Source of the DNA: an uncultured virus (IMG/VR IMGVR_UViG_3300023371_004674)
Lineage: Duplodnaviria; Heunggongvirae; Uroviricota; Caudoviricetes
DNA: 64,000 bases
Virus record (IMG/VR): IMGVR_UViG_3300023371_004674
Direction: 5' to 3' (one strand)
Each line of letters begins with the position of its first letter. Position 1 is the first letter of the stretch. Under the pieces are notes generated by a model. That model saw nothing but the letters and a program-made list of their open reading frames with translations. It had not been told where the DNA came from and made no database searches. The translations under genes were made by a program, and so were the position numbers. Shown in pieces: positions 8,167 through 32,292 of this stretch.

Positions 8167-8188
8167 GGGGCGGCTTATCAGCCACCCC
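8167..8188 (-). promoter_or_regulatory. DGR target-recognition hairpin downstream of VR2
   Basis: Minus strand GGGGTGGCT-GATA-AGCCGCCCC, preceded by AAACTGAT as at VR1. Confidence 0.75.
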
Positions 8189-8204
8189 ATCAGTTTGTCA
8201 GTAA

Positions 8205-9329
8205 TCAGTTTACAGTTTTTCTGCGGAAATAAGCGGAGCGGAAGCCGAGGTAGTGACACGTAGCGGAACGGGCATTGTGGCCATACAAGTCGAAGACACC
8301 GTAGTAGGAACTGTAGCTCCAGTGACCGCCACGAGAGGCGAACCATTCGCCTTCGGATCCGTCGATATAGCAGTACGCATTCGGCTCTCCGGGGTAAAGG
8401 GCGAGTTCCTTCATCTCTTCGGTGTACCCGATGTCCGATTTCACGTCTTCCCATCTGCAACCCGTGTAATCTTCCTCTTCGTTCTCCGCCGTGGTGAACT
8501 TGATACCATCTGTACAATCGACTCTGATGGTTTCATCGCTGACAGGATCAATCAGACTTCTCCACTCAGAACTGTTCATAGACAAATCCACGTCGAGTGC
8601 CGCATTGTCAGCAACCTGAACCTTTCCGTCCTTGAAGCGAAGACCTCTCACCATTTCCCATACATTGCCGCACAGATCGTGAACGCCCGTCACCGTATGG
8701 TCGTGCGTCCAAGTGGCGGGACCTGTTCCTGTCAAGGTCATTCCCGAAGAACCCTCGACCAAGATACCTTTCTCATCGGGGTTTGCGTGATACTTACCGA
8801 AATCGGTGTTGCCGTGGGGGAGGGTTCCGTTCTTCAGGCTGAGGTTTGCAAGCAAGCCCCATTCCTGAGCTGTCATAAGGTGCCAGCCTTCACCCTTGCT
8901 GAAACAAGCTCTTGCCGCATCGTCGTTGGTGATGTTCGTCCAAGGCTTCATTCCCGGAAGAGAGTAAGGCTTTCCGTTGATATTGCAGTTCGGATATACC
9001 GAGATGTAGATCTCATCGAAATCCTCGTCGCCTGCTTTGAAAGCCGAATGAATCTTCGAGCTTCCGCCTTCGAAAAGGTCGCAGTTGCGAACGACCGAGA
9101 AGCGTCTCATAATCGAGGGGATACCTGCGTTATCGTAGATAACAACAACCTCGTGCTTGATGTCGGGTTCGGGAGGTTCGAGCTCCATAAGCACTTCTTC
9201 TGTGCCTGCTTTCTGGGGATTCGGTTTCACGTCCTTATCGCAAATCTTCATAAGGACCGTTTCGAGAAATCTTTCATTCCCCGATGCTTCCAGCTCTGTG
9301 CCGGGCATTCTGATTTTCAACTCTGCCAT
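8205..9329 (-). CDS. Second (remote) DGR target: C-type-lectin/FGE-sulfatase fold protein
   Basis: Paralog of 31228..32292 (IYD..G.PSIM, YSLP, GWH....EW, GTGP.TW.H, DL.GNV.E, RGG.W, GFR); C-terminus is VR2. Confidence 0.93.
   Translation of the reverse strand: MAELKIRMPGTELEASGNERFLETVLMKICDKDVKPNPQKAGTEEVLMELEPPEPDIKHEVVVIYDNAGIPSIMRRFSVVRNCDLFEGGSSKIHSAFKAGDEDFDEIYISVYPNCNINGKPYSLPGMKPWTNITNDDAARACFSKGEGWHLMTAQEWGLLANLSLKNGTLPHGNTDFGKYHANPDEKGILVEGSSGMTLTGTGPATWTHDHTVTGVHDLCGNVWEMVRGLRFKDGKVQVADNAALDVDLSMNSSEWRSLIDPVSDETIRVDCTDGIKFTTAENEEEDYTGCRWEDVKSDIGYTEEMKELALYPGEPNAYCYIDGSEGEWFASRGGHWSYSSYYGVFDLYGHNARSATCHYLGFRSAYFRRKTVN
8232..8344 (-). repeat. DGR variable repeat VR2
   Basis: 113-nt ungapped match to TR 30538-30650; 15 mismatches, all at coding-strand adenines of the TR. 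Confidence 0.97.
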
Positions 9330-10755
9330 TTCATTTACTTCCTTTCATCATTCTTGAAATTTCTTTGAGTTCGTCTTTTGAAGCGTAAGGTCCTGCCATT
9401 GCACTCATAAGTCCGAGTGTTTGGAGGGCAAGCCTCGCTCTTTTGGACGACGCTTTCTTTTCTGCGAGGTGCTTTTCCTTTTCTTCTTCTGAAAGGGATT
9501 CGAACCATTTCAGGTATTCCTCGTGCCGCTTCTTTGCTTCTTCTTCGGCTATTCGATCTCTGCCACGCTGGGCTTGTCTTCCGAGTGCTTTCACTTGCAA
9601 TGCACCTCCTCTTCCGTAATCACGCATTCTTCCTTTTTGGCTTTCAGGTAAATGAACCACGTTTCGTCCCAAACATAGTTATCCAAGAAGCGTTTGAGGT
9701 CAACGCCTTCTCGGTTATGGAAGCCATCCATTCTTTCGAGGACATCTACGAGCCATTCCTTTTCAACCACGAAGCCCTTGCAGTAATCATCGTCGCTGTC
9801 AGGGAACGTGCATAAGTAAATACCATTATCGTCTCCCGAATCTTCTTCAGTTTCTTTCAATTCGAGGCTGTCTTTGATACGCCACCAACTGTACTCCTCC
9901 TCGCACAAGAGGGACTTCATATACTCTTCGTCCTGAAATTCGTTGTCCTCGAACTCTTCCATACAGACGAAGCATTCTCCGTTGATGCCGACTTCCTCAT
10001 TGACATCTTCGGGCTTGCAGCCTCGATCCTTGCACCATTGCCACTTGTATCTACCGTAGAACTTACGGAGCAAATACTCATACGTTACCATTCGGTTTCA
10101 CCTTCTTTCAATAGTCGGAGTCGATGCACTCATCGGCTTCCGTGTAATACTCTCCGTCGTAGCCTTTGCTTAACATAATCTTTTCGTAGCAAGCGTGGCA
10201 AACAAATCTGAACGGGATCCCGTGACAATCATACGTTCTGCACATCTTGTGGTGGCTTACGGTCTTATTGCATTCAGGGCATTGTTCCTGCTGGAACAAG
10301 TGAGCCGACAACCTCTGTCTGAATCCGGTCGCTGGTTCGAAAATGATGAAATCTTCGTCTTTGTAATCTGGGCTTGCGGCTATCTTGTCTGCCGCATCGT
10401 AACATTTTTCGTATGTAGTGAACTCGCCCTTGTCGATAAAGTCATATCGGGTTCTGCCTTCCATTTGAAGAACATACAGTTCCGGTCTTTTCTCATCCAT
10501 TGTTTTCTTCGACCTCCTTTTTCATCCAAGCAAGCATACGAAGTTTCTCTCTAACCTCGTCGAGCTGTCTTCTGGTATCGTTGATTCTGTCGAGCTCTCC
10601 CGGAAGAAACGTGCCAATATCATAGATAGTGTACTTTGCTGCGTTCTCCCTGAACTCCTTCACTTTGGCTTCGAGTCTTTCGCTTAATTCAAACTCTTTC
10701 TGTTCGAGTTTTGCGATTTCTCTTCCGATTACTACTGCTTCCATTCATTCACCTC

Positions 10756-10784
10756 TTGACTTTCTCCTGCCGATGTGTTATAAT
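10756..10784 (+). promoter_or_regulatory. Near-consensus antisense sigma70 promoter
   Basis: TTGACT-17 nt (ending TGT)-TATAAT on the plus strand, opposite to the genes. Confidence 0.85.
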
Positions 10785-10787
10785 CAA

Positions 10788-10901
10788 GGGGCAAGCGGTG
10801 GCAGGAATGTTCCGCTCGCCCCTCCCTCTCACACGAGAGGGGTTTTACTGGGTTTGCCGAGTTCTTTCTTTAAGGGGGAGAGAGCTCGGCTTTTCTTTTT
10901 C
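10788..10901 (+). ncRNA. Putative ~110-nt antisense small RNA
   Basis: Own promoter; hairpins ggggcaagcgg/ccgctcgcccc and ccctctc/gagaggg; terminator gccgag../ctcggc-TTTTCTTTTT; overlaps the 3' end of ORF 10845..11051. Confidence 0.65.
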
Positions 10902-11094
10902 TACCGCGTTTTCGGTAGTGGTAATTAAGGGGACGCCTGCTATGTAGTGGATACATTCATCGAAATCTTCTGCTGTAAGTCCCTTGGATTTCAACCAATC
11001 AGACAAACGAGCATATTGTTTTGGAGTCATAAATTTTGGTCTCACTTTCAATTAACACCTCCTGCCGCCTGTGTTATTTGTAGGTTTGTAACCT

Positions 11095-11175
11095 ACATAC
11101 TTATCTTACAATAGACCGAGCCAAAAGTCAATAGTTTTGCAGATATTTTTCAAATATTTTTCTAAAATATCTGTT
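11095..11175 (-). promoter_or_regulatory. Repeated promoter, copy 2
   Basis: TTGACT (11131-11126)-17-TAAGAT (11108-11103) with AT-rich upstream tract. Confidence 0.8.
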
Positions 11176-11195
11176 TTTATTTTCAAACAGAACAA

Positions 11196-11240
11196 AACAA
11201 AGGCGTTTCGCTACCAATCGGTAACGGAACGCCCTTTCGT
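11196..11240 (-). terminator. Probable terminator
   Basis: aggcgtttcg-ctacc-aatc-ggta-acggaacgccc stem with a T-rich tail on the minus strand. Confidence 0.55.
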
Positions 11241-14200
11241 TTAGAGATAAACCTGCTCGCCGCATCCGATCTCGTGGAACCAACCGGAAATTGCTTCTGC
11301 GAGATCCGTCGAGTCCGTATCGTCTTTGAGGTCATAGCACATCGGACAGCCACCGCCGTAGTAGTTCCCGATAACCAAAAGCGAATCTGCGAAGTTCACT
11401 ACCGCAACGCTGAAATTCCAGTTGTCGATGTCTGCCTGAAAGTCAACCGTGGGGAGCTTATCTTTACGCTCGAACAAATACTCAGCAAGCTCGTCTGCTG
11501 TTGCCGTGATCTTTTTCTCCTGTGTCATAACGTCGTCCTCCTTTCTATTGTTCAATCGAGTAAAAATCTTCATCGCATCCGAAGCACTGATACTTGTATC
11601 CCGGAAGCAAGCTACGGAAGAGGGGACCGCCGCAACGCTTGCACGTTCCAAGTCTGCGGAGATACTTCATTCTCTTTACCTGTTCGGGCGTTGCTCCGTT
11701 TTCTTCGAGATACATTCTTGCCTGCATAACCGAGTCGAAGATCAAAACATCTCCGAACTCTCCTTCGAGGAGTGCGTCCTCACAAGCAGGGTTGAAGACA
11801 ACGAATTTCTTATAGTCCTTGCTCTGAGTATCAACCTTTTCGGTTCGGTTCTTTTCTCTCTGCTCCATACATTCGAGGATCTCATTCGGCTCAAAGCCGA
11901 TGCCCCTGAAAATGTCGATGGCGATTTCGCCTGTTCCTGCGGTTTCATAAACGTAATCGAACATTTTTGCAAACAGTTCAACTCGTCTTTCGCTCGTCAT
12001 CTTTCAGGCCTCCTTACAGCTCGCAACAGAATCCAGCGAGCTTGTGCCAAAGAGCGAGAGTGGTAGGCTTCATTACCACCTCATCAGGAACTCCTTTGTG
12101 GAGATACCACGTTCTCGCCTGTGCGTGAAGACGGTTGCAAGCGTTTCTCTCGCTCTCCGTGAACCACTCACGCATCAAACGCTTTCTTCTGCCGGTGTTC
12201 CACCGAGAACTGCTCATAGTCTCGCATACCACGGCATACGGGACCATCTCTCTGATCTCGTCGGCTGTCAGCTTGATGTAAACTTCCATCTCATTCCTCC
12301 TTGCTATCGTTGATGAGTTCTACGAATATCTCCTTCGTATCGTCGTATGTATGGGCGGACAATTCCGTGTGGGTGAACCAAATATCGTACAGAGCTTTCA
12401 GGAGAGGGGATACGTTTCTCAGGCATTCAACCTCCCACTCTTCAAAATCGAGCGAAAGCTGATCCTGAATGTATCCGAGCAATCCCTTGTAGAACACGAT
12501 GTCGTAACAAGCATCGTAAATCTCGCAGGGTTCCTTCTGGAGCATCATCTGCTCGTATTCTTCGAGCTCCTTGAACGCCCTCTCTTCGAGGACTTCATAA
12601 ATCTGTTTCTTATCAGCCATTTATTCGGCTCCTTTCTTTTCTTTCGGTGCGTGGATTTTCTTTATGACATCTCGATAAATCGAGGAGTCTGTGCCGTAAA
12701 CATTTCTGATGGAGTACCCGTCGCCTCCATCTACGGTTGCAGAGCGAATGAAGCGAATCGGGAGTCTGACATCCTTTTCGAGCTGGAGTTCAAGGATGCT
12801 ACCGCCGCCTCCCCAAAGGTCATACAAGCCGCACTCCACTTTCTTGTCGATAAGGACATATCCGCAGTACGGACGCTTCTCCGCATCGTAAAAGTGTCCG
12901 TTTCTGTCTTGCAGCTTCAGCAGTTCGTTCAGCTCGAAGATCTCTTCGAGAGTCATTCGCACGAGGAACGTCAGGATTGCCATATGCGAGCCGTGGTTGA
13001 TAACCTCCTGTCGCATTGATTCGAGGAAGCCGTGCGGATCTTTGATGTCTCCCTTACGGAGAGCCTTGTTCAAATCGGTCTTGGTGTAACCCTGCTGGCG
13101 AGTGAGCCAAAGGATACTTGCCTTATCGTCGATGGTTTCTCCACATCTTCCGTTGTAGTGCGGATACACGCAGTTGAGAACATAATCGTAGTTGCCATCG
13201 CCGGTATCTACGAAGATGTTCACGCAGAACTCTTGCTTCAGGAAATGCTCATACGGATAATCAATGGAAACGAGCTCTCGGATATAGTCCTTTACCTCAT
13301 CCTCGTAGCACTCCGCATCCTGTATTCCCATTTCGACGGTAGCCATCACGTGCTTGAACAGGTCGTGCTCAATCTGCCACTCCGCATCCTGATACCACTC
13401 GAACATTTTATCATAGAAGCGTTGCTCAGGATCAGGAGCTTCCATAATCTCTTGCAGAGTTTTGTCGTCCATTTCGTCACGGTAGTCTGCGTAGATCTCT
13501 TCGTGATAATAACCATCGGATTTCTTCTTCCAATGACACATCTTACTGTCAATGGCTTCTCTCACGAGCTGCTTGATTACTTCTTTCATATTCGTTCCTC
13601 CTATCAGTACGGGCTGTCGCCATCTACTATCTGGTCGAGCTGTTCCACGATCTCATTCGAGTCGATGAGGTCGGGCAGGAGCTTTTCAAGGTCGTATATC
13701 AGTTCAACGAGCTTCGCATACGCCTTGTCTCCGTTTCTGCTGATGTAACGGTAATGCTTCCATTCAATCCCCTGATCTACCACAATCGGGTTCTTCAGGA
13801 ACGGGCTCTTGCAACCAAAGTGCTTTTTCAGGATAGTTTCGAGATCGACTATCTTTTCTGACATCTTATACCTCCATAAAACTTACGAACCAAGACAAGC
13901 ATTCCGTTCTGTCAGGGAACTCTTCTTCCCAACGGTCAACTCCGTCTGTGATTACGCCTATTACTTCGATGCCGGTGTCGAACAGGTAGAATCCGCACAT
14001 TCCTTTTACAAGACCTACTCTCTTGTAACCAGCCTCATCCACGACCTTGTACCAAGAGTCGTCCATATGTACTGAGCCGCATTCGGGGCATACCCAAATT
14101 GCCTGTCTGTTCTGGTCGATCTGGATCTTCTTGTTCACGAACTGCTCGCAATCGGGACAAACGGTTGTCAATCGTACCATTGTTCTTCGACCTCCGCTTT

Positions 14201-14722
14201 CACGTCAACCAGTGCGTCCGAAAGAGTTTCAAGCATCTCGACTATTTCATCCGCATCATTTACGAGCGTTCTGATTGATGGGATGCTGTTTCTGTTCGGG
14301 TTGTCCGAGTTCGTCTTCGCCTGCACCCACATCTCCACGTGTTCTTCAGGATCCCAATCCCTTGCATATTCAACCACGCCTTTCACGAGGTCTTCGTCTC
14401 CGTGAATGTAGAAAAGAAAATCCTCTCCCGCAGGACTGAACTGCTCGAATTCTACGCCGCCCCGCTCATCCTCGTAGGTAATCCATCCGAGGTCTCTTGC
14501 CTTTTCGAGTGCTCGTCTTCTGATCTCCAATTTGAGAGCCGCTTCGTCTGCCGCCTCCTGTTCTTCTTCGGTCTTGGCTTCCCAAGCCTTGTAATACTCC
14601 CTCGCCATAAGGTCGGCGGTCTTTCTATCCACGCCTTTCTTCTCGATGGCTTTGTAAACCTTTTCTTTTTCTTCAGGTTCGTGCTCCAATTCGAGCAATC
14701 TCAAAATCAACTCATTGAGCAT
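11241..14722 (-). other. Operon of hypothetical genes (11241..~11530, 11545..12000, 12014..12289, 12291..12620, 12621..13589, 13604..13864, 13866..14180, 14168..~14722)
   Basis: Coupled, mostly acidic ORFs with RBSs downstream of the promoter at 14816-14843. Confidence 0.7.
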
Positions 14723-14804
14723 TTCCGATAACTCCTTTCTGACTATCCAATCGGTAACTGTTGCTGTTAAAAACAAGCGGTCTGCACCGCTCCCGATGTG
14801 GATT

Positions 14805-14885
14805 TACTTTACTTTATCTTACAACACCTACCGCCTAAGTCAATAGGTTTTTCAAAAGTTTTCGAAAAAATTTTCGAGAATATCT
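14805..14885 (-). promoter_or_regulatory. Repeated promoter, copy 3
   Basis: TTGACT (14843-14838)-16-TAAGAT (14821-14816)-AAAGTAAAG. Confidence 0.8.
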
Positions 14886-16468: not shown

Positions 16469-16600
16469 ATGCCCGTAGATGCCTCAAATTTCGCTTGTGC
16501 GGGGTTTTGTTTTCGGTAGGGTATTTGGTGGTTCGCCCAAAGAAAACCTCTTGGCGAGAGTTTTGTGCGATTTTCGAGGGTGTTTAAGGGTGTTTGGGAG
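16469..16600. repeat. Dispersed intergenic element, copy B
   Basis: Shares atgcccgt..gcggggttttgtt with copy C and tttggtggt..agaaaacc..gagagttttg..agggtg..ggtgtttg with copy D. Confidence 0.6.
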
Positions 16601-16817
16601 GTCGCAGGTCAATACGCCTCTCCATAGTAAATATCAGGTCGGCTCGTTACATTGTAGATCCACGAACCACATCGAACGAGCAGGGCGTCTTTGCCGTAAT
16701 ACTTTTCTTTCATACCGATAACGCTTCCGGTGACGCTGAAATTCGGGAACTGCTGGATGCCGATTTCGAGACCTCTCTTTCTCGGCAAATACTTCACTCT
16801 TGCCATAGTCGCTCCTT

Positions 16818-17138: not shown

Positions 17139-19807
17139 ATCTTTCACCTCACACTTTGAATTCGTAAATCGCTTTCATAGCGTCTTCCTGTTCCGATACT
17201 GCCGTGTTGAGTCTGCACTTGATGTCGAACCAGTTCTTGACAAAATCGAGCATAAACTCAGGATACTCGGTGATTCTGTTAATGCTGGATGCGAGGTTTC
17301 TTGAACCCTTTTCTCCAAAGTTTCCGTATGGACCGAACTTTACGGCATATTCGATACACTTCGGCGTAACCTTCAGATGATACTCGTCTGTAACGGAACC
17401 ACTTCTGATACAAGTGTGCTTGCCCCCGAAGTGAACCTCGATCTCGTCGTTCACTCTTGGCTGGATGCTTTCCTTGATGTAGGCAACCATCTCTTCGATG
17501 TTGCTGATTAGCTTCTCCTTGTCTGCTTCTGTGAAAACCATACTTTCTTTCTCCTTTATGCCAATTCGATATTGAGGACGCTCTTTTCTTTGTCAACCTC
17601 GAACAGATGGGGTTCCATATCTCCCCATACAACGAACTTGCTGGGGACATCGGTTCTGACGATCTTCGTTACCATAACGAACTCATCTCTGTCACGGTAT
17701 TCTCCGTTCTTCTCGATCAAAACCTCTACAAAGCATTCGGTGTCGCCGATGCCTTCGATCTCGATAGCCTGCCAAAGCAGATCCTTGATGTCCTTCGCCT
17801 GTTCGAGCGTATCGCACTCCTTAACGTAGGTGTAGGCTCCCGTGTCGAAGTTGCCGCCGAGCATCTTCTCGTGAATATCAACCGTTGTCTTGAACATTTT
17901 CTTTCTTGCCATTTTCTTATCTCCTTAATCTTCTTTTTCTGCCGTGAGGAAATCGTACATATCGTCATTGATGAAGCGGTACACGGCTTCACCGCCATCA
18001 TCTGTGATGTCAACCTTGCCTTTCGGTGTCTTGGTGAGCTGAGCTTTCAAATAGTTCTTCCATTCGATGTCATCGTAGTTGTCATCAAGATACTTCGTGA
18101 TCTCGGTCGGGTGAAAAATCGCCTTTCTGCGAAGGAACTGTGTGAGCTTACACACAATCAGGTCTTTCGAGATTCTTACAACCTCGATCTCCTTCAGGTA
18201 ATCTTGCCTGATCTCGTCGAGCTCTATGTAGAAACTGGCGTCGATCTCGTCATCTGCGATGTCGAAGGTGAAATCAATCACGCCTTTCAAATCGAATAGT
18301 GTCATCGCTGTCTCTCCTTTCGTAAAGGTATCCATCTGCCTTGTACAACTCTCCGCCCAGTGCATAACAAACCACGGGACCGATTATCGAACCGTCGCAT
18401 ACGTAATATCGAGTGTCTTTGCATTTTCTACTGCTTTCAAGAACAGCCTTTTTAGCGTCTCTTAACTGAACAAAACGCTTCCAGCCATTCAGCGTATTCG
18501 CAACGTAATAACCCACATCTTTCTCCTTTCAGTTCAGTGCCGAGAGGGCGGACATAGGGATAATTGCATCCCACTCCCAACTCTCGTGTTCATCCATCAG
18601 GTGTCCGATGATGTTGTCTGCAAATTCATCGCAGGAGCAGGTCTTGCGAACTTCTTCCCAGAGCCATCTCCACGTCAACTCAATAGGCTTCAGGTGGTCT
18701 TCCGGGAACTCACGAGCAATGCCGGGGAATGCTGCGGGCTTGCACTCGTAGTAGTTCACTCCGTCCTCGCCCTCTCCCATATCGACTACGATTGCTACGA
18801 AATTGTCGTGGGTTACTACCGTGTCATTCTTCTTGAACTTGAACTTTGCCATATCGTTTCTCCTTTCAATCGAAACAAGTGAATTCTTTTACTTCTTTTT
18901 CGGTGATGCGGGTGCTCCACATAAAGCCGGGCTCCCATTTCGCATCCTGTTTAGCCTTGATCTCTTCGGCTGTTTTTCTGTCTTCTGAGCTACCTATCAG
19001 CTCGGTTCCGTAGGGACTATCCATATACACGTAGAACATCTGTCATCCCTCGCTTTCCACGTAACAGAACGCCACGTACTCGGAGTCTTTCATCCGAACC
19101 TTATCAACCGCCTGCTGCTTGGTGTCAGCCATTGCGGTTGCATTTCTTACTCTGCCTGTATCTGCATTTACGATTCGAACAACCCATTTCTTCATTTTCG
19201 TTCTCCTTTCAAATAGCAAGCTCGATGCGGATGCTGTACCCGTAATCTTTCAGGTAATCCGCTCCGTACTTCTTAACGATTTCTGCGACTTTTTCTTCGG
19301 CTTCTGCCTGATCTTTGGCGAAGCCGAGGAGTTTCTTGAACTCCTCGTGCTTCCACAGGGACAATGCAAACATTTCTTTACCTCCTGTCAGTTCTGGTAC
19401 ACCTCGCACTGGTAGTTATACCCGATAACAAATCTGAACTGAGGGAGCAACTTTGCAAGGTCGTGTGCTAACATTTCGTGGCACGTTCTTCCGGTAACTC
19501 CGTAGCTCGCTTCTGCTTCTCCGTACTTCTCTACGGTTGCGATGAGCTCCTCGACCTTTCCTTCCTCGTTGGAGTTGAACCCCATATGTACTGACTTTCT
19601 TGTTTGGCTTGCGTAAAGCTCTCCGTTTCTGGTGTTCCTGTAAACCTGACACCACTTACCGTCAACTTCTTGCTGTCTTTCGATGTCGAGAAAATCTCTG
19701 CCGGTCCTTTCTTCCTCGTCGAACATCTTGTAGAGTTCCTCTTTGCTGATAATCTTGATTTCTGCCATTTCTTTTCTCCTTTTCTATTCCAACTGGTGTT
19801 GGTTTAT

Positions 19808-19885: not shown

Positions 19886-19924
19886 CAATTTTATTTATAA
19901 TCAAAGCAAAACAAGGCGGAGCGA

Positions 19925-21215: not shown

Positions 21216-21216
21216 A

Positions 21217-23457: not shown

Positions 23458-23478
23458 CGGGTTATCTCCTTTCTTGGC

Positions 23479-26400
23479 TCAACGCCATTTCAGTTGTCTT
23501 ACATAGGGCAGAGCGTCTTCCACGCACTTAACCCAATAGGACTGCTTCTTGCTTTTCTTATGCCTTTTAACGAATGCTTCCATTTCGTCAAGCGTTCCCG
23601 CACAGCTCGCTCCTTTGAGAATAATCTGTGCTTCAGGAATACGGATGGCTTTCAGAGTGTCAGGTTCGATGCTGCAACCGCCCTCGAACTCCTGAACTGC
23701 TTTGAGCCGGCAGAGTGGGAGATACCCTTCGGGCATATTCTTTCCGATGTTCCAAATCGTATATCCGAGCGGGACGAAATCTACGATCTCGAAAACGTGA
23801 TCGGGGTGTCCGAGCTGATGCGTATAAAGGAAACCGTCCTTTTCGTAAAAACTAACCATCTTCTTCTACCTCCAAGAGCATTTTCATTTCGTAATCGGTG
23901 AAGCCGATACAGCGAAGCGTGTTATGGATTTCCGAGCGTCCTGCCAGCTCGGTAAGATGGGCGATTGCATTGTCAAGCAATTCTGCTTTTCTGGAAGGGA
24001 GAACTCTGCCTTCGGGATTGCGGTAGCAGGAGCAACGCTCTCCGTCGTAATCGCAAGGTCCGTCTCCTTCGTTTCCGTCTCGGTGGAAGCATTCGTCGCA
24101 GAGCATCATCGTTTCTCCGCAGTACGGGCAGTGAGCCACGTATCCATCTTCCTCGATGCTCCATCTCATATAAACCTCACGGTCGCAGAACGGGCAAACC
24201 TCGACGATGAAATCATCCTTGCCTTTGAGCAACTGCTCCCATTCTCCGTCGTCGATGGCGTTCACTTCCTGAACATACAGGCAAACGTGATTGTTGGCGT
24301 GGTCGCCTTCTGCGTTAGCTTCAAACAAGACGTCCTCATCAACCTCGACCGTCCAGTTGTTATTCTCTGCGTTCTCCCTCTCGGTGGCAACCTGTTTGTC
24401 GTACTCCGATTTTGCCGCTTCGGGCGAATGGAAAACGCCAAGCACGTCGGAGCCAGCATCTCCATCGGTTGCGTAATCGACTGTCAGTACGTAGTGCTTC
24501 ATACTTCCTTCAACTCCTTTTCGTCATATACTTTGAGGTTCACGAGGCTCGTTCCCTTATACTCCTCGGTTTCATCCTGAACATCTCTGCTCAAAAAGTC
24601 TTTGCCATCAAGGTCGATGATGCCGTCGTTGCAAAGGTTCTCGACGAACTCAACCGCATCGTCTGCGGTAGCTTCGTCATCTTCGAGTCTGACAACGACA
24701 TTTCTGCTCAGGGTTTCTGTGATGGCGATAACAAATTCTTTCATAGCATTTCCTTTCTTTTTCTGATTTTGAGTTCCGTCAAATCTGCGATAACATCAAT
24801 ATCTGCGATGCTATCTTCGAGAGGGTAGTTCTGATCTTCGCCTCTCTTGATGATGTCGAGCTGGGCTTTCGTGATAGCCCTTTCATACGCCGCTTCGTTC
24901 ATTTCTCGCACATCCTTTCCTTAACTTTCTTGAACAGTGCCGATACCGTCCATCCGCACATATCCATAAGCACGTCGGGACCGCTGTTTTCAAGCAGGTG
25001 TCGAGCAAGGTTTCTGCCCTTGGTTGCGAGCTTTTCATCGTCCGAGTCGATTTCTTCGAGCAGGATCTCTACAAAGGTTTCTGCAATTTCGTCGTCGTTG
25101 ATGATTGCTTTCAGCATATCCTTTTCTCTATCCGATAAGGTGAGCATCCGTAACTCCTTTCTCAACCGATACCGACTCGGTTGCTATTCGATTTTCTGTA
25201 TTCGGTGTCGATGATGTCTTTCTCGAAATATCGTTCGATTCTACACCACCCATTTTCCTGACAAACTGTGAGCTGATAGAAATTGCCGAGCTCGGCATCC
25301 TTTCCGCCTTCGATGATGATGCTCTCATTCAGCTCGTTAAAGGTAACGCAAGGGAGCGACACGCCCCCGCATCTTTTCTTGATCTTTTCGTATGTATCCA
25401 ACTGCATTTACGCCTCCTCTCCGAGAAGCGGGCAAAACGAGGTGTACAGGTTCACGTCGAAGCACTCATTGTAAACAGACACATCACAAACGATGTCGCC
25501 CTGTGCCTCGATTGCGTATCTTATCATCTCGACCATCTCGGCATCTTCCGAGAGCTCCGTGTCGAACTTCTCGTCGATCTCTTCAAAGTACGTGCAGTAA
25601 TTGCCCGAATAGGTCTTGGCTGCCGACTCTCCGATTATCCAGCCTGAAATCAACTCTGCGTACAGTTCTTTGTCAACCTTTTTCATTTTCGATTCTCCTT
25701 TCAATATCGTTCAAGGGCGTAACAGATAATGTCCCTGACAGATCTTGCGATGGACTGTTCAAGGGTATCATCTGTATCCCAACTCTTATCTCCAAAGAAA
25801 CGAAGCTCTATCATTTCTCCGTCGGGTGTCTTGGTCTTGATTGCGTTCCAAAGCTCCTCGTCCTTCGGATACTCGCATTCGATAACGAAGCAGTTCTTCG
25901 GGAACTTCTCCTCGCAGTAGTCGAGGTAGGTCCATCTGATGAGAACCTTATGCTTGGTTACTGACTTGACCGACCATCTCCAATTCTTATCCCGGAAGCC
26001 GTTGTCGGCGATGGCTTTTCTGATGAGCTTCTTGTGCTGTCTGAAATCAACTTCGAACACTTTCAAGCACCTCCTGAAATTTTCTTTCGAGCGTATGTAT
26101 TTCGGGCAATCTCTCCTCGATAATGCCGAGACGTTTCTTTTCATCCTCGATGTCGATGCTCTTGAACTTCGATAGACTGTCAATCCGCATCTCCAACTGA
26201 TACTTCTCGATCTCCAAATTCTTGCCCTCGATTCCGAGAACGCATCTTACTACAAGCAATTCACGCTCGTTCAATTCTACTTTCACTTCTTAACCTCCTC
26301 ATAAGGAACGATTTCTGCTTCGATGCCTTGCTTATTGCAAATCTTAACAAGGTCTGCCGCATCCTTCTTCGTCTTAAACTTCATTGCGTTTTCTTTCTGC

Positions 26401-27205
26401 CCGAAATCAAGGAACGGACATCCGAACAAGCGTCCCACGTTCACGTATCCACGGGGTTTTCCATCTCTTCTTGCAACAACTATGTACGCCATCTCAACCT
26501 CCGATCCCGACGATCCAACGCATAACCGATTCAACCTCTTCGTCGATGGTTCTGTTCTTCAGGTCATATTCGATGTGCTTCTCATCTTCGAGGAACTTAA
26601 CAATGCGTCTTGCTCTGTCGAGAATTTCATCCTTGATGAGCTTCTGGGACTGCTTGCGGTTCCGTTCGTCAATTCTTTGGGTTTCCATCAGGTACTCCCT
26701 GATGAGTCTTTCGAGGGAATAGTGTCTGTAATCGCTTGCGAGTGGTTCCATTTTCGCTCCTCCTTATTTCGTGTAATACCACGCTATGAATTTGTGTTCG
26801 GTTCTGTCTTGGCTGGTCCAAGGCGTATAGTGTGCCGGGTGGTTCTTCTTCAGGTATCTGTTCTGATTCTCTCTGTCGCAGAATGATTTCGCCTGATCCT
26901 CTGTATCGAAGAACTGACAGGTCAATCTGTATCTTGCCATCTCTGCCTCCTTACTTTTTGATGAGCTTCTTGGCGTCCTTCCAATCATCGAGGACTGCTT
27001 CGTATTCTTCTCGGTCAGCAACTTCGATGGACGCCCAATTATAAACGCCCGTGTCGATGTTCCAACCTTGCTGCTTCAGGTATTCGGCTATCTTGAAGAA
27101 CCGCTCTTCCTCGTGGTCTTCGTAGGAGAATTCAGCGAATCTCTTACCCTTACAGTAGTGACCGACCTTTTCATTTGCGACCGTTCCTCTGTAACTGATT
27201 GTCAT
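23479..27205 (-). other. Operon of about 12 small hypothetical genes downstream of promoter copy 5
   Basis: Coupled ORFs (23479..23859, 23852..24502, 24899..~25147, 25162..25407, 25408..25704, 26047..26286, 26283..26534, 26494..26751, 26951..27205). Confidence 0.65.
24499..24744 (-). CDS. DpnD/PcfM-like small protein
   Basis: F.IAITETLSR.V.V....DAVE.VE....GII.L...DF pattern. Confidence 0.55.
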   Translation of the reverse strand: MKEFVIAITETLSRNVVVRLEDDEATADDAVEFVENLCNDGIIDLDGKDFLSRDVQDETEEYKGTSLVNLKVYDEKELKEV

Positions 27206-27250
27206 ATCGTCTATCTCCTTTCAACCCTGTTTGTGGTGTTTTGTGGTGGG

Positions 27251-27330
27251 CTTTACTTTATTATACATACCGAGCGTCAAAAGTCAATAGGTTTTTCGAT
27301 ATTTTTTCAAATTTTTTCAAAAATATTTAT
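27251..27330 (-). promoter_or_regulatory. Repeated promoter, copy 5 (first promoter of the early region)
   Basis: TTGACT (27287-27282)-16-TATAAT (27265-27260)-AAAGTAAAG. Confidence 0.85.
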
Positions 27331-27352
27331 TTATGTTGATTTTCAAAAACAG

Positions 27353-27462
27353 ATGCCCGTGAGAGCCTAAAAATCAGTTTAGCGGGGTTTTGTTGTTCAG
27401 GGGTATAGATGTATCAAAAGTTTCTGAAAAGGGCGAGGGACTTGATTTGTCAAAAACGAGGT
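27353..27462. repeat. Dispersed intergenic element, copy C
   Basis: atgcccgtgagagcct..gcggggttttgttgttcaggggtat aligns with copy B. Confidence 0.5.
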
Positions 27463-27509
27463 CTATTTTTTGTGCATTATTCTTGCAGATAAAATACCAA
27501 TCGGTAAAA

Positions 27510-27908
27510 TAAAAAAGCCCTCTCACAACGCACACATCGAGCGAAGCGAGAGGGGGAGAACGTATTTATACGTTCTTTCTGTTACTGTTATTATTAGTGT
27601 TAATGTTAGTGTTAGTGTTAGTGTTAGTGTTTACGCTGGATTTTCCGCAGAATGTCCGCAGGACTGTCCCGTGGACTGTCCGCAGGACACGGAACGAGGC
27701 GAGGATTTTCATAAACATTTTCGTTTATGCCGAGCGAATATTCGCCGATTATCCTTATTTTCGAGATTTCTTTCGATTTCTGGTTCAAGGTTGGTACAAG
27801 GTCGGTTCAAGAATCGTTGCGGGATTTTGCTTGGGACTGTCCTATACCTTTATTATGGAATGTCCCGTGGACTGTCCTGTGGAATGTCCCGTGGACTTTC
27901 CGTGGGAC
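27510..27908. repeat. Repeat-rich non-coding region, candidate replication origin
   Basis: (TGTTAG)n at 27580-27631; 12-mers TGTCC-N3-GGA(C/A) at 27653, 27665, 27677, 27861, 27873 and 27885; 11-mer GGT(T/A)CAAGGT(T/C) x3 at 27782. Confidence 0.6.
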
Positions 27909-27958
27909 AAAAAGAAAAACCCCAGCTCTGACCTTTTACAGCCAAAACTGGGGTTCTT
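27909..27958 (-). terminator. Terminator ending the late operon
   Basis: aaccccag../ctggggtt inverted repeat followed by TTTTTCTTTTT on the minus strand. Confidence 0.7.
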
Positions 27959-28067
27959 TATATAACCGCACCCGCTTTCTGCCAAAGCATACTCACGGAT
28001 GCGGACGAAATCGGGCTGGAGGTTTACCCGATAACGCCTTATTTATTTTCTCCCGTAGGAGAGCCTG

Positions 28068-28442
28068 CTACTGTCCTGTCGGTTTGTTGTCGGCAGTAAG
28101 TGATTCAGGGCTATCTGTGATAACGTCGATTACCTGCTGTACCGAATTATCGAGTTGCTTTACAGCACTCTCGATGTAGGCTTCGGTTTCGGTTGTAACG
28201 ACAATGCCTTTTTCGTGGAGCAGATTCACAACGTACTGTTTCTTGTCGATCTGGTGGTTTTCCGAATACTTTTCGGCAGCTTCGACAAAGTGCTGTACCA
28301 CCGTATAGAGCCGTTTCTCCTGAAGCCACGGGATAACCGTCTTCTTGATCCACGGAACTACGAATACGGATACAACACCTGCGATTGCGGCGAGTACGAG
28401 TTCCAACAGGTTCGACAAAAGGATTTCGAGAAAGTCATTCAT
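28068..28442 (-). CDS. Phage holin (LL-H family-like)
   Basis: N-terminal TM segment, V.AAE...K..KKQYV...IESAV motif; GGAGG RBS. Confidence 0.75.
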   Translation of the reverse strand: MNDFLEILLSNLLELVLAAIAGVVSVFVVPWIKKTVIPWLQEKRLYTVVQHFVEAAEKYSENHQIDKKQYVVNLLHEKGIVVTTETEAYIESAVKQLDNSVQQVIDVITDSPESLTADNKPTGQ

Positions 28443-28583
28443 TGGGGTTTCCTCCGTTTCTCTCGTTTTTGCAATTATTTTGTCAAAGATTATCAGTACA
28501 CTGACAATCTTTCTCAACAAAAATGCTACTTTCAGGGTTGAAAGTGCGATTTCTGTTCTTTGTTCGCACATAGGCATAGCATA

Positions 28584-28955
28584 TTACTTCTGCCCGTGTG
28601 CCTTCTGATTCAGATACTTTTCAAGGGCGGTGTGTGCTTTTGTAACCTCACCGTTACAACCTTGCTGTTTCAAACCGTCAAGGACAGCGAGAACTGCGTA
28701 GGATATAACACAGAGTTCGTCCTCAACCCTCTGTATTCTCTCGCTCTCTTCCGAGCGGAGAAGGTCGATGTCTTTTTTCTCTTGATCGAGAAGTCTTTGA
28801 GTATCTGTATCGTGCTTTTTTTCGAGCTTTTCAATATCGGTGGATTGCGAGTTCTGCTTATGCACCCACTTGGTAAGACCATATACAAGTCCCCAAATTG
28901 CCGCAATAGCAGTTGCTACTCCACCGATGGTGATTATGATTTCGACTGCTTCCAA
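28584..28955 (-). CDS. Holin-like membrane protein
   Basis: N-terminal TM segment, coiled coil, LAVLDGLKQQGCNGEV motif typical of lysis-module genes. Confidence 0.6.
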   Translation of the reverse strand: MEAVEIIITIGGVATAIAAIWGLVYGLTKWVHKQNSQSTDIEKLEKKHDTDTQRLLDQEKKDIDLLRSEESERIQRVEDELCVISYAVLAVLDGLKQQGCNGEVTKAHTALEKYLNQKAHGQK

Positions 28956-28972
28956 AGATACCTCCTTTCCGA

Positions 28973-29176
28973 CTATGCGTTCAAGCTGACGAAAGGAGAA
29001 CCTTGTCCCAATAGCTTCAGCTCATCTTCGGCTTTTCGGCGGTCGTCATCAAATTCTTTTTTGGTTTCTTCATCCACCGCACTCATCTCCGCTATGAACA
29101 ATGCCTGCCTGTTGATGATCTCGGCTTGCATCTTCACAACTTCGCAAAGGCGGTCGATTGTTTCGATGGCATTCAA
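28973..29176 (-). CDS. Small coiled-coil protein overlapping the RT 3' end
   Basis: GGAGGT RBS and TTG start; IETIDRLCEVVKMQAEII. Confidence 0.55.
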   Translation of the reverse strand: MNAIETIDRLCEVVKMQAEIINRQALFIAEMSAVDEETKKEFDDDRRKAEDELKLLGQGSPFVSLNA

Positions 29177-30386
29177 CTGTCTGTACCTCCGTTTTGGTTT
29201 CTTTTGGTTCAGGCACAACTACTTGGGATAGTCCAATGCCGTTTTGCTCCAGCGTTTTCACGTAGGAGCAGTAGATCCTGTTCAGCTCGGTGCAGAGCCC
29301 GTGGCTGTTACAGTGAATGAGGATGCCGTGATACGAAGCGGCTCTCCTCTTGAATTCATCCTTTGTCATCTCGCCTATGGATAACTGATAGCATATCACC
29401 TTGACTTTACGGATGATCTTCCGTGCGGTTGACTTCTTTAACTTTCTATGGGTAGCCCATATCTTGTAGCCTACAAAGTCGATACCGAGAGTTATCGGTC
29501 GAATAGCTGTCTTGTTATTCAAGCTGAGAGCGAGACATTCATTAAGGAATCGTTCGATGCAATCTTTCCATCGGTGCAGTTCCTCCTTGCTTTCCGATAG
29601 AATGATAACGTCGTCCATATACCGTATGTAGTGGCTGATTCCGAGGGTGTGCTTACAGAACTGGTCGAGCTGGTCGAGATAGATGTTCGCAAACATTTGC
29701 GATGTGAGGTTGCCGATAGGCATACCCGTATCATCGAGCCAATCTTCATACGGACAATCTTCCGGGCTGAAGCCAGCGGGAAGACCGAACTTCTGGTTAG
29801 GATTGTTGATAATCCTTTCCAGTAGCGTCATCATCTTCTCATCGTGAATACGTACACGCAGAATGTCAAGCAGGATCTCGTGATTGACACGATAGAAATA
29901 CTTACTGATGTCGAGCTTCAGATAATAGCATTTCTTGTCGGGGTTTTCGAGTTCCTTTCGGTGAGCTTGACGAAGCCAATACTGCAACTTGTCGGCAGCG
30001 GCGTGTGAGCCTTTGTCTTTTCTGCAAGCATACGAGTCTTCGATGAACTGTTTGTCATAGAACGGAAAAAGATACCGATATATGCTCCATTGAACGATAC
30101 GGTCACGAAACGGAATCGACATCACGAGCCGTAGCTTCGGTTCGTGAACGTAGAACATTCTGTATCTACCCATCTCATAGACCTGCTCGTTTAATTCAAA
30201 CAGAAGCAGATCCAGCCCCGTTTCCAGCTTATCTGAAAATTTGAGGATTTCAGGTCTGTATCGTTTACCTTTACGAGCCTCTCGATACGAGATTTCGAGG
30301 TCTTCGTAGGAACACATCTTGTCATATACATCGGTGAGGACAGACATACCCTCGACGTACTGTTCTATTTGGTATTCGTTTTCCAT
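29070..30386 (-). CDS. DGR reverse transcriptase
   Basis: GMPIGNLTSQ (DGR-type SQ), YIRYMDD, LKLDISKYF and GIDFVGY motifs; likely start MENEY at 30386. Confidence 0.97.
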   Translation of the reverse strand: MENEYQIEQYVEGMSVLTDVYDKMCSYEDLEISYREARKGKRYRPEILKFSDKLETGLDLLLFELNEQVYEMGRYRMFYVHEPKLRLVMSIPFRDRIVQWSIYRYLFPFYDKQFIEDSYACRKDKGSHAAADKLQYWLRQAHRKELENPDKKCYYLKLDISKYFYRVNHEILLDILRVRIHDEKMMTLLERIINNPNQKFGLPAGFSPEDCPYEDWLDDTGMPIGNLTSQMFANIYLDQLDQFCKHTLGISHYIRYMDDVIILSESKEELHRWKDCIERFLNECLALSLNNKTAIRPITLGIDFVGYKIWATHRKLKKSTARKIIRKVKVICYQLSIGEMTKDEFKRRAASYHGILIHCNSHGLCTELNRIYCSYVKTLEQNGIGLSQVVVPEPKETKTEVQTVECHRNNRPPLRSCEDASRDHQQAGIVHSGDECGG

Positions 30387-30537
30387 AAACCTTAAAAAAA
30401 GAATGAGCCGAGCGGGGCGTCTCCGTCTTCTCGGCAATTTACTCTTTCTCCTTGCGGAACGGCGGCGAGTCCCTTTGGGCCTGACACTTTTCGGTCTCCG
30501 TAGAGAGCCATTCGTATCGTAGGTATGCCAGACGCAG

Positions 30538-30653
30538 AGCGGAGCGGAAGCCGATGTTGTGATTCGTATTGGAACGGGCATTGTTGCCATTCAAGTTGAA
30601 GACACCGTTGTTGGAACTGTTGTTCCAGTTACCGCCACGATAGGCGAACCGCT
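30538..30653 (-). ncRNA. DGR template repeat (TR)
   Basis: Lies between avd and RT; in the target frame reads RFAYRGGNWNNSSNNGVFNLNGNNARSNTNHNIGFRSA (12 AAY codons, 29 adenines); matches VR1 and VR2. Confidence 0.97.
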
Positions 30654-30686
30654 AATATAAAATAGACTCGTCCCTATGAAAACGGC

Positions 30687-31160
30687 TTACTTGTTCAGGT
30701 GGTTCAAATAACCTCCGATCAATCTGCCGATCTCATCTAAATATTGACTGTTCCACACGTATTTCTTATGCAGGGAAAGAGGCGGAGAAACAGATACAGT
30801 GATGAGCTTTCCTTGCTCGTCATATACCTTGTTGCCGTTCTTATCTTTCTTTGGAACCTCCTGATCATAATAATCTTTGTCTGCGGCAATTCTTACGAGA
30901 TGCCGCAAAACCTCCAGTTCCTCATCCAACTCCTGCAATGTGGACTTCTTGTAATATTTCTTCTCGATTTTGACGACAAGTCGGAACATCGTCAGCATCG
31001 ACTGCCTTATTTCGCTTGCCAATTCCTTGTCTCGACCGGGAAATCTATCCACAATCTTCTTGCCGTATCTATACATATCGGCAATCCGCTCTTTGAGGAT
31101 AAACGCCTTTTGGTCGTCTCGACGGTTGGGGCTATTCATTTGGATTTCTTCGTTTTCCAT
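30687..31160 (-). CDS. avd: DGR accessory variability determinant
   Basis: bAvd-type helical motifs (RFP..K.LA..IR, KKSTLQELD.EL..LR, EIGRLIGG); lies between VR1 and TR. Confidence 0.9.
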   Translation of the reverse strand: MENEEIQMNSPNRRDDQKAFILKERIADMYRYGKKIVDRFPGRDKELASEIRQSMLTMFRLVVKIEKKYYKKSTLQELDEELEVLRHLVRIAADKDYYDQEVPKKDKNGNKVYDEQGKLITVSVSPPLSLHKKYVWNSQYLDEIGRLIGGYLNHLNK

Positions 31161-31185
31161 AGCATCTCCATAGCCTTAAAAGATA

Positions 31186-31205
31186 GGGCGGGCTACCGCC
31201 CACCC
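31186..31205 (-). promoter_or_regulatory. DGR target-recognition hairpin downstream of VR1
   Basis: Minus strand GGGTGGGC-GGTA-GCCCGCCC. Confidence 0.75.
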
Positions 31206-31227
31206 CATCAGTTTAACAGCGAACAGT

Positions 31228-32292
31228 TTACAGTTCTACAAAAGCGGTGCGGAAGCCGAAGTTGTGATGCGTATGGGAACGGGCATTGCTGCCAAGCAAG
31301 TTGAAGACACCGCCGTAGGAACCGCCGCTCCAGCTACCGCCACGAGAGGCGAACCGCTCTGCGGCACCGTTGTTCATATAGAAGTAGTCGCCTCCGTGAT
31401 TTCCGCTATCTGCGGGGAACAGAGCGAGAGCCTTCATAATCTCAGGGCAGGTAACTCCGTCCGCAAGTGCAAGAGCATTAAAGCTTGTTGACTTGTAGGC
31501 GTCTTCCTGCAATGTGAACTCGGTTGCAAGCGTGATTTTGCTGTTTGCATAATCCCACTTCAAGGTTCCTGCCGTGCCGGGATCTACGAGAGAACCGTCA
31601 GGCATAATCGCCTTCCAGAGAGTGCTGTCAACCGTCTGCGGATTGAGCTTGTTTGCGGCGTTGTTGTAAGGGATAATCTGGATTTCTCCAGCTACGGTTC
31701 TGTAACCGCCCATCCACTCGTAAACATTGCCGTTCAAATCCCACACACCGCTTGCATCGTTGTTATGAGCCCAAGACTTAGGACCGGAGCCCGTAGCAAC
31801 TCTTCCGTTGTAGAGCGTCCCATTGTCAATGTAGGTGTAGGTAACGATACCTTTCTCGTCAGGTCTCGAATGATCCTTGCCGTAGTTATTGTTACCTCTC
31901 GGCATAAAGCCGTTCTTTCTGCACTGAAGGGCAATCCAAGCCCATTCAGCGTTGGTTGCAATGTGCCAACCGTTGCCCTTGTTCTCGCAGTATCCTCTTG
32001 CAACATCGAAGTTGATGCCCGTTTTAGGATCCTGCAAGGGTAGCGAATAAGCTCTGTACAAGCCATCCGCACATCTGATTGCCACGTTCTGATATTTGGA
32101 ATACCAGAATGCGGCTTTTTCTGCATTATCTACCGAGAATGCGGGGTGCGTGTTCTCCGAACCGCCCGTGATAACATCGGCGATATTGCCTTTGTCAAAA
32201 CGAACCATAATGGAGGGCATACCCACATCGTCGTAGATGACTTTGTTGGTTTCGCCGCCCAAGAGCTGAACGGCAACTTCAAGATCTGTCAT
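31228..32292 (-). CDS. DGR target 1: Mtd-like C-type-lectin/FGE-sulfatase fold receptor-binding protein
   Basis: End of the tail module; DLNGNVYEW, RGGSW and GFR motifs; C-terminus is VR1. Confidence 0.93.
   Translation of the reverse strand: MTDLEVAVQLLGGETNKVIYDDVGMPSIMVRFDKGNIADVITGGSENTHPAFSVDNAEKAAFWYSKYQNVAIRCADGLYRAYSLPLQDPKTGINFDVARGYCENKGNGWHIATNAEWAWIALQCRKNGFMPRGNNNYGKDHSRPDEKGIVTYTYIDNGTLYNGRVATGSGPKSWAHNNDASGVWDLNGNVYEWMGGYRTVAGEIQIIPYNNAANKLNPQTVDSTLWKAIMPDGSLVDPGTAGTLKWDYANSKITLATEFTLQEDAYKSTSFNALALADGVTCPEIMKALALFPADSGNHGGDYFYMNNGAAERFASRGGSWSGGSYGGVFNLLGSNARSHTHHNFGFRTAFVEL
31243..31358 (-). repeat. DGR variable repeat VR1
   Basis: 116-nt ungapped match to the TR; 15 mismatches at TR adenines plus one non-A difference at the 3' (IMH) end. 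Confidence 0.97.

Follow-up and report, generated by a model that had tools for sequence, protein, structure and literature searches.

Bacteria and phages have, as far as is known, only one natural means of targeted protein hypermutation, the diversity-generating retroelement (DGR), and phage DGRs are read almost entirely as tropism switches. Here we describe the DGR of a contractile-tailed prophage carried on 64,000 nucleotides of DNA from an uncultured virus of the Caudoviricetes (IMG/VR record IMGVR_UViG_3300023371_004674; this whole stretch is hereafter called the window). The element has one template repeat (TR) and two variable repeats (VRs): VR1 lies in target 1 (T1), the local target, and VR2 lies in target 2 (T2), a remote target 22 kb from the TR in the same prophage.

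The DGR of Bordetella phage BPP-1 resembles that of the window in its Avd-TR-RT gene order (RT, reverse transcriptase), in adenine mutagenesis, in the C-terminal position of the VR in a C-type-lectin fold, and in a hairpin with a GRNA loop located 3′ of the VR (PMC3240598; this source and PMC5758913, PMC6328139, PMC8144416, PMC11792537, PMC12629997, and 10.1101/575076 are cited here and below for the available portions of their text). It differs in having a single target, Mtd, which is a three-domain trimer and matches the structural model of T2 weakly (template modelling [TM] score 0.31). The best structural and sequence match of T2 is TaqVP (5VF4), the target of a Thermus aquaticus prophage DGR, which has a single-domain FGE-type C-type-lectin fold and is reported to be a single-domain monomer (PMC6328139). 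In its DGR, TaqVP is the adjacent and sole target, and it has no counterpart of the N-terminal extension that characterizes the remote targets (described below).

The layout of one adjacent plus one remote target is already known from papers published between 2017 and 2025 (PMC5758913, 10.1101/575076, PMC11792537, and PMC12629997). Wu et al. (PMC5758913) referred to “many examples” of phage-associated DGRs that combine an adjacent target with a second, non-adjacent one within 50 kb. The window element, with 22 kb between TR and VR2, belongs to this class; the available text of that survey contains no conserved clade of remote paralogs. Faecalibacterium phage Lagaffe, for which one VR was described in PMC5883640, was later found to have a second VR; its two Mtd-like targets are 40% identical, each VR varies among 18 cognate genomes, and the authors suggested a doubled tropism function (PMC11792537). 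Lagaffe (Lagaffe_CP, NC_047911.1) shares with the window the order of baseplate, 3 small open reading frames (ORFs), local target, Avd, TR, and RT, and has a second FGE/Mtd-like target ~9 kb downstream, like the remote target of the window. It differs in that (i) its targets have 42–45% protein identity to those of the window; (ii) it has a lambda-GpA terminase and a P2-like baseplate; and (iii) its remote ORF continues past the VR, with no clear hairpin after it. In Roseburia phage Shimadzu, the gene containing VR1 precedes the RT and is a predicted tail gene, and the gene containing VR2 has no known function; both VRs were found to be mutagenized by virion sequencing and in mouse isolates (10.1101/575076). 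Its likeness to the window is the two-VR layout, taken from the published description rather than from a sequence comparison.

In gut prophages, second VRs have been tied to methyltransferase and counter-defence neighbourhoods in a study that placed most of its DGR-bearing prophage species in Bacteroidota (PMC12629997). Both the observation and its interpretation match those of a preliminary description of the window, the resemblance being one of layout. The novelty implied by the preliminary description is not supported, as prophage DGRs with adjacent and non-adjacent targets, including the counter-defence link, had been published. Because the question of a non-structural binder is already in print for other gut prophages, the window is a further case rather than a discovery. 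Remote targets were beyond the detection of the survey by Roux et al., according to which phage DGR targets are mostly tail proteins (PMC8144416). What is new here is that the remote targets form one old, recognizable clade with its own N-terminus and with cis homing marks like those of the local targets. Within the available portions of the sources, our literature searches turned up neither a conserved clade of remote paralogs nor its N-terminal extension, and they likewise gave no mention of the AACTG repeats described below; this does not prove that such reports are absent.

One template repeat, two variable repeats, and their recipient marks

The window corresponds to C23:111835–175834, minus strand, of a 31-contig, 2.1-Mb assembly. 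All genes of the two-target DGR are on the minus strand of the window, and its parts are as follows:

31228–32292, minus strand: T1, local type, 354 amino acids (aa); phrog_2889 (E 2.6e-119), with a weak FGE-sulfatase match; local clade
31243–31358, minus strand: VR1, in T1 (116 nt compared)
31182–31235, minus strand: VR1 3′ mark; three AACTG copies (31209–31235), then a hairpin (31182–31209)
30687–31160, minus strand: Avd accessory protein; Pfam bAvd, 69 bits (cut-off 40)
30538–30653, minus strand: TR, 116 nt, between avd and the RT gene
29070–30386, minus strand: DGR RT; Pfam RVT_1 (E 2.4e-21)
8205–9329, minus strand: T2, remote type, 374 aa; phrog_2889 (E 6.8e-97)
8232–8344, minus strand: VR2, in T2 (113 nt compared)
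8167–8217, minus strand: VR2 3′ mark; AACTG/TACTG copies (8191–8217), then a hairpin (8167–8188)

The TR and the VRs were compared without gaps on the minus strand, and the significance of the mismatch distribution was calculated as a hypergeometric P. The TR and VR1 differ at 16 of 116 nt; 15 of these mismatches are at TR adenines (8 A>G, 4 A>C, and 3 A>T), and the other is a T>A change close to the 3′ end (P = 7.8e-10 for at least 15 of 16 mismatches at adenines). The TR and VR2 differ at 15 of 113 nt, all 15 at TR adenines with none of the 84 non-A sites changed (P = 4.3e-11 for 15 of 15 mismatches on 29 adenines among 113 sites), and the match to the TR is lost in the next 3 nt upstream. 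A chance origin of the adenine bias is excluded. Among the 30 adenines of the 116-nt TR, 9 are changed in both VRs (to the same base at 3 of them), 6 in VR1 only, 6 in VR2 only, and 9 in neither. The two VRs therefore represent separate, independent writings of one template. Read in frame, 17 of the 38 codons contain 29 TR adenines, of which 15 occupy position 1 and 14 position 2, with position 3 free of them; the TR contains 8 AAC and 4 AAT codons, and no stop codon is reachable. All changed codons are non-synonymous (13 of 13 in VR1 and 14 of 14 in VR2), and VR1 and VR2 end 15 and 27 nt, respectively, before the stop codon. Every mismatch count of the preliminary description was reproduced in this comparison, as were its count of 29 adenines in 17 codons, now located to positions 1 and 2 only, and its view that VR1 and VR2 had been mutagenized independently. 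No third VR or second TR was found in the 2.1-Mb assembly.

The RT carries the motifs IGNLTSQ and YMDD; the xGxxxSQ motif is a hallmark of DGR RTs. Its open frame extends to 30590 and thus runs into the TR; translation probably starts at the ATG at 30386, and RT homologues align from about residue 38–60 of the translation of 29070–30500. The protein is 44–69% identical to the RTs of Lagaffe, Saumur, Dulem virus 37 (described below), and viral contigs with TR/VR pairs. Avd scored 65.9 bits against NCBIfam DivGenRetAVD, which is under the cut-off of 80 of that model. A search of 28500–31500 against Rfam gave no family at E values up to 0.1.

Both VRs are followed by a common GC-rich end (GGCTTCCGC-N-CCGCT), three or four AACTG-type pentamers, and a hairpin, and their 3′ flanks are similar over ~60 nt. 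The VR1 hairpin (GATGGGGTGGGC-GGTA-GCCCGCCCTATC) has a 12-bp stem and a GGTA loop, and the VR2 hairpin (GGGGTGGCT-GATA-AGCCGCCCC) has a 9-bp stem and a GATA loop. The 3′ flank of the TR has neither AACTG repeats nor a GRNA hairpin. Homing in BPP-1 requires a hairpin with a GC-rich stem of 7–10 bp and a GRNA loop, and such hairpins are present at other phage DGRs (PMC3240598). The distance between hairpin and VR end in the window, ~43–45 nt, is outside the 4–34 bp range of that source.

The same marks were surveyed in relatives (described below). A scan anchored on the stop codon, for stems of at least 7 bp with a 4-nt GRNA loop, found the hairpin 3′ of the local target in 12 of 13 cases and 3′ of the remote target in 11 of 15. 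In the remote targets G001 and G002 the hairpin was located by eye within the ORF, and none was found for the Lagaffe local, Lagaffe remote, and G009 remote targets. The stems vary in sequence between phages, while the pairing is conserved. The pentamer, AACTG or, in some phages, ATCTG/TACTG, occurs in 3–4 copies between the VR end and the hairpin and partly overlaps the stop codon. Among the window targets and the 3′ flanks of the targets in L005–L023 and L068–L075, at least 3 copies per 62 nt were present in 20 of 24 targets (12 local and 12 remote), against a background of 0.32 per 62 nt. No mention of this element was found in the available text of PMC3240598, and the AACTG repeats may be an additional recipient mark of this DGR lineage.

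We conclude, with a probability of about 0.85, that one DGR (avd, TR, and RT) of a contractile-tailed prophage diversifies two paralogous binding proteins, and that this two-target DGR is real and apparently complete. By the established mechanism of DGRs, the TR transcript would be reverse-transcribed by the RT together with Avd, with misincorporation at template adenines, and the resulting cDNA would replace either VR. The common GC-rich 3′ end, the AACTG repeats, and the GRNA-loop hairpin, all three lacking at the TR, would mark the VR as recipient, and the surface rewritten in this way would be the C-terminal ligand-binding surface of two paralogous C-type-lectin proteins of the TaqVP type.

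Local and remote target clades

T2 and T1 are 39% identical over 335 residues, with T2 residue 63 aligned to T1 residue 18. T2 therefore has ~45 extra N-terminal residues, in line with the preliminary description, in which it was a diverged paralog with an N-terminus longer by about that number. An AlphaFold2 model of T2 built from 30 sequences had predicted local distance difference test scores of ~90 at residues 60–374 and <50 at residues 1–59. T2 thus consists of a TaqVP-like C-type-lectin body (residues 60–374) and a clade-specific N-terminal extension (residues 1–59). The model matched TaqVP in Foldseek (E 2e-30, TM score 0.75, 29–30% identity over 362 columns), as did the T2 sequence in phmmer (E 1.6e-32). 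The T2 body is accordingly modelled as an FGE-subtype C-type-lectin fold with the VR at its C-terminal binding surface. No signal peptide was recognized in the T2 sequence.

T1 is located directly after the baseplate genes and the following 3 small conserved ORFs:

33235–33540, minus strand: small ORF upstream of T1, phrog_7177
32818–33228, minus strand: small ORF upstream of T1, phrog_9010
32297–32626, minus strand: small ORF upstream of T1, phrog_8734

In tblastn searches these ORFs accompany the local target in the same order in other phages, all 3 of them in Dulem virus 37, Lagaffe, and L014 and 2 of the 3 in Saumur. They are candidate adaptor or fibre parts.

T2-like genes were found by tblastn in 53 of 50,697 phage records, with two places in 4 records representing 3 phages: Dulem virus 37, FP_Lagaffe (two records), and Clostridium phage Saumur. 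In all three, the local target, Avd, TR, and RT follow the baseplate, and the second target, at a distance of 9–35 kb, has methyltransferase, Lar, integrase, recombination, or replication genes around it. The mismatches between TR and remote VR are at TR adenines in 16 of 21 cases in Dulem virus 37, 15 of 17 in Saumur, and 11 of 11 in Lagaffe (the last by inspection). T2-like genes of 37–64% identity were also found at 17 loci on viral contigs and 31 loci on metagenome contigs, all of them closer to T2 than to T1. A DGR RT is present elsewhere on 8 of the 10 viral records with a remote-type gene, and the two records lacking one are 58–60% complete. In 8 of 8 records the remote gene is on the RT strand, 14–25 kb downstream (counted round the circle). 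Nine viral contigs have a local VR as well as a remote one, and their remote VR mismatches are at TR adenines in 9/9, 12/12, 13/14, 15/16, 12/12, 12/13, 19/19, 11/11, and 16/17 cases. The pair of adjacent and remote targets thus occurs in 12 other phage genomes (the 3 deposited phages and 9 uncultivated viral contigs), which answers the survey of related phages proposed in the preliminary description. Closer relatives of the locus were sought in three further ways: a megablast of 7500–32400 against the phage collection gave no match, the exact 33-nt flank pattern had 0 matches in metagenome contigs, and protein-guided scans of viral and metagenome contigs reached at most 63–64% identity.

A tree was calculated from 36 proteins (13 local and 23 remote), comprising the window pair and 34 of 58 homologous ORFs; the other 24 were left out as near-duplicates judged by matching lengths and identities. 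The last 45 VR-encoded residues were trimmed, two read-through ORFs were cut, and a quick search with the LG+G4 model was used. A single branch divides the local from the remote rows, with a Shimodaira–Hasegawa-like approximate likelihood ratio test support of 100, and the remote rows of Saumur and Lagaffe form long branches. Because one branch separates the two clades, the duplication of the target is older than these phages, and both copies have been retained since.

The two clades have different N-termini. Local targets begin with a short common N-terminus, M-x-NFDDLKLAVEALSG or similar; this NFDDLKLAVEAL-type N-terminus is kept in 13 of 13 local targets and is absent from T2. An N-terminal extension of 55–75 aa is present in 18 of 23 remote rows, from which a 332-aa subgroup, Saumur, and Lagaffe differ. 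The extension is predicted to comprise a strand-strand-helix unit followed by a Pro-rich linker. A profile built from 14 of the extensions and searched against 1.84 billion representative proteins gave 7 matches; each was a fragment or variant of a remote-type target, and none had the extension in another architecture. Comparison of the extension with the 3 small ORFs beside T1 by hhalign gave probabilities <1%, and a feature search of the ESM Atlas with the N-terminal extension gave no usable match.

The C-terminal ends of the targets were also compared. In several relatives the remote ORF continues well beyond the VR (L006 31798–33060, which is FP_Lagaffe gp40 and continues for 115 codons; L008/L009; L022; and L048). 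By contrast, local targets end within ~10 codons of the VR.

Prophage layout and gene context of the remote target

The prophage begins, in transcriptional order, with a large serine recombinase (C23:89.9 kb), which is followed by genes for RecT, a DnaC-like protein, RusA, SSB, RtcB, and others. A sugar-modification cluster, an HNH gene, and the terminase come next, and then head, tail, and baseplate genes of the E217/Pam3 type. The baseplate genes are followed by the 3 small ORFs, T1, Avd, TR, RT, and a holin-like gene, and these by a ~22-kb run of small genes that includes HD, dUTPase, T2, MazF-like, two methyltransferase, DUF7659, and DUF4160/DUF2442 genes. Host genes (miaA, HlyD-like, QueH, and CotJA/B) lie beyond L076:1507. 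The prophage would be ~87 kb long if the serine recombinase marks its other end. The genes next to T2 are as follows:

7706–8146, minus strand: ORF of 146 aa without a family, between T2 and the MazF-like gene; kept only in L014
7191–7709, minus strand: MazF/PemK-like gene, 172 aa with a C-terminal extension, downstream of T2 after one ORF
5732–6283, minus strand: MT-A70 methyltransferase (family match)
4955–5716, minus strand: D12-class adenine methyltransferase (family match)

These assignments bear out the placing of T2 in the preliminary description, near a MazF-like gene and methyltransferases and outside the virion module. No antitoxin partner was recognizable for the MazF/PemK-like gene at 7191–7709. 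The RecT, DnaC-like, RusA, and SSB genes are at the prophage end opposite to T2, and the T2 block is co-directional with the late genes and next to the host junction. From this gene order in the direction of transcription, T2 is located in an accessory block after the late genes and not in the core replication module. The “early-type operon” of the preliminary description therefore fits this prophage only in part, as T2 follows late genes and the replication core is at the other end, but it does fit 7 related viral loci, where the remote gene is within replication or DNA-metabolism modules. In all 7 of these loci, which were annotated with PHROGs (73 proteins), the remote gene is surrounded by DNA-metabolism genes, including those for a ParB-like nuclease, PAPS reductase, a MazG-like protein, primase, SSB, a DnaC-like protein, a replication initiator, methyltransferase, dUTPase, and resolvase. 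A MazF-like gene directly follows the remote target in L012, L013, and L023 and follows it after one small ORF in L014, as in the window.

A scan for promoters and terminators over 6500–12500 found no more sites than in shuffled sequences, and no expression timing can therefore be read from them. In the 740-nt gap upstream of the T2 operon, at 10756–10890 on the plus strand, a promoter-like site (TTGACT-17-TATAAT with TG, 11 of 12 consensus matches) is followed by two terminator-like hairpins (10823–10842 and 10856–10890), an arrangement that suggests a short independent transcript.

Several other features of the prophage were noted. A 1137-aa ORF (52143–55556, minus strand) combines a phage portal domain (residues 84–440), a NUDIX hydrolase domain (residues 562–670), and a long C-terminal part. 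The sugar-modification cluster at 59654–63846 (minus strand), immediately upstream of the HNH and terminase genes, has four genes (DegT-type aminotransferase, Polysacc_synt_2 dehydratase, PIG-L deacetylase, and WbqC) and a weak match to a TET-associated glycosyltransferase; it could serve virion or DNA glycosylation. The early region encodes an RtcB RNA ligase and an HAD domain of “Swiss Army Knife” RNA-repair proteins (L077:12742–14040 and 17260–17745; C23 ~104.6–109.6 kb). RNA-repair pairs of the RtcB/HAD type are a phage countermeasure to anticodon nucleases. Two independent IMG/VR contigs, 100% identical to the window, end at ~28021–28029, near the holin-like gene (28068–28577). No endolysin was recognized between the RT and HD genes. 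ORFs at 23–28 kb had no family on either strand, and the possibility that this region is an opposite-strand block was rejected, as its GC/AT skew is like that of the minus-strand flanks and its plus-strand ORFs have no family.

Activity of VR2 and the role of the remote protein

Variation within the lineage was judged from Logan contigs, in which rare variants are out of reach. A 4-kb contig from another study, ~98% identical to the window, is colinear with it over 7000–9526 except for 8251–8326, where it has the same length and is diverged. In a third run, the contigs stop at 8248 and resume at 8336. The mutable adenine span of VR2 is 8249–8335. In a related phage species, for which 12 genomes were picked and 11 used (one was dropped owing to a difference in coding-sequence length), the remote VR is different in each genome: 27 of 27 TR-A columns vary, compared with 6 of 85 non-A columns. 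Outside the remote VR, the same genomes have 42 synonymous and 23 non-synonymous variable codons of 349. Adenine-specific variation, which the preliminary description had named as a check on VR2, is thus present at the remote VR of a related phage. Separately, short contigs of the presumed source sample (run X1) share the VR2 3′ flank at 8185–8228 and continue into a different VR-like sequence, which points to another, related DGR phage in that sample.

Several observations weigh against a remote target that is actively diversified outside the tail programme. The presumed source sample has one contig spanning VR2, with no difference from the window. The divergence at 8251–8326 is known by position and length and not base by base, so that adenine specificity in this very lineage is not demonstrated. 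An RT-guided scan of viral contigs gave three from IMG/VR with 100% identity to the window across 25073–34500, VR1 included; as none of them reaches VR2 and VR1 is identical in all, they say nothing on activity, and they may share one campaign. Ongoing activity was hence not seen in the source population. Among relatives, the remote VR of Dulem virus 37 has 5 non-A mismatches, and the remote VRs of Lagaffe and G009 have no clear hairpin. As regards the role of T2, the predominance of tail proteins among phage DGR targets (PMC8144416) favours a virion role a priori, and the position of T2 downstream of late genes and co-directional with them makes late read-through possible.

An undisturbed consensus across VR2 in the presumed source sample and an invariant VR1 among the three identical contigs are what would be seen if VR2 were a frozen relic, formerly written by the DGR and no longer a recipient. 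We consider this very improbable in view of (i) the 0 of 84 non-A positions differing from the TR despite the 39% protein identity of the two genes; (ii) the intact hairpin and repeats of VR2; (iii) the coincidence of the sole unalignable block of the ~98% identical relative with the mutable span; and (iv) the hypervariable remote-type VRs of the related phage and the experimentally active second VR of Shimadzu (10.1101/575076). Still harder to credit is a likeness of TR and VR2 that arose by gene conversion or recombination between the paralogs, or by an assembly artefact, instead of retrohoming. The ~60-nt likeness of the 3′ flanks of VR1 and VR2 fits it without being specific to it, and the VR2 mismatches are exclusively at TR adenines (P 4e-11), the same contig was recovered from independent runs, and the pattern is repeated in the 12 other phage genomes.

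T2 may be a second adhesin or alternative receptor-binding protein borne on the virion. Its own N-terminal domain and flexible linker would then anchor it at a site different from that of T1, which would give each particle two independently evolving specificities. T2, a full-length paralog, has the TaqVP-like body of the tail-module target; the small N-terminal domain, Pro-rich linker, and binding domain of T2 resemble a tethered display protein, and without a signal peptide a role outside the cell requires the virion or lysis; the prevalence of tail proteins among phage DGR targets (PMC8144416) and the doubled tropism proposed for Lagaffe (PMC11792537) point the same way. Against this possibility, to which we give roughly one chance in three, stand the location of the remote gene outside the structural module (in the window, in all 3 deposited phages, and in each of the 7 annotated viral loci), the lack in T2 of the N-terminus common to the 13 local targets, and an N-terminal profile unlike the 3 small ORFs adjoining T1. 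We lean, at slightly less than even odds, to T2 being a hypervariable binder whose production would be separate from the tail programme and which would not be attached where T1 is, as it has no signal peptide, lacks the local N-terminal motif, has its own N-terminal domain and linker, and is surrounded by genes of DNA metabolism and modification.

The long retention of a remote target outside the virion genes, beside methyltransferase and toxin-like genes, raises the question of whether phages also diversify a non-structural binder. In the strongest form of such a role, which we hold to be rather unlikely, the remote clade would be a cytoplasmic hypervariable lectin-fold binder, not part of the virion and expressed with the DNA-modification, MazF-like, and anti-restriction genes. 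Cultivable phages with this layout exist (Lagaffe, Shimadzu, and Saumur). If the cytoplasmic role is true, the remote binder would let the DGR explore sequence space against variable host factors, such as defence proteins, and the remote clade would be the first DGR-diversified intracellular phage weapon, conserved from before these phages of gut Clostridia diverged.

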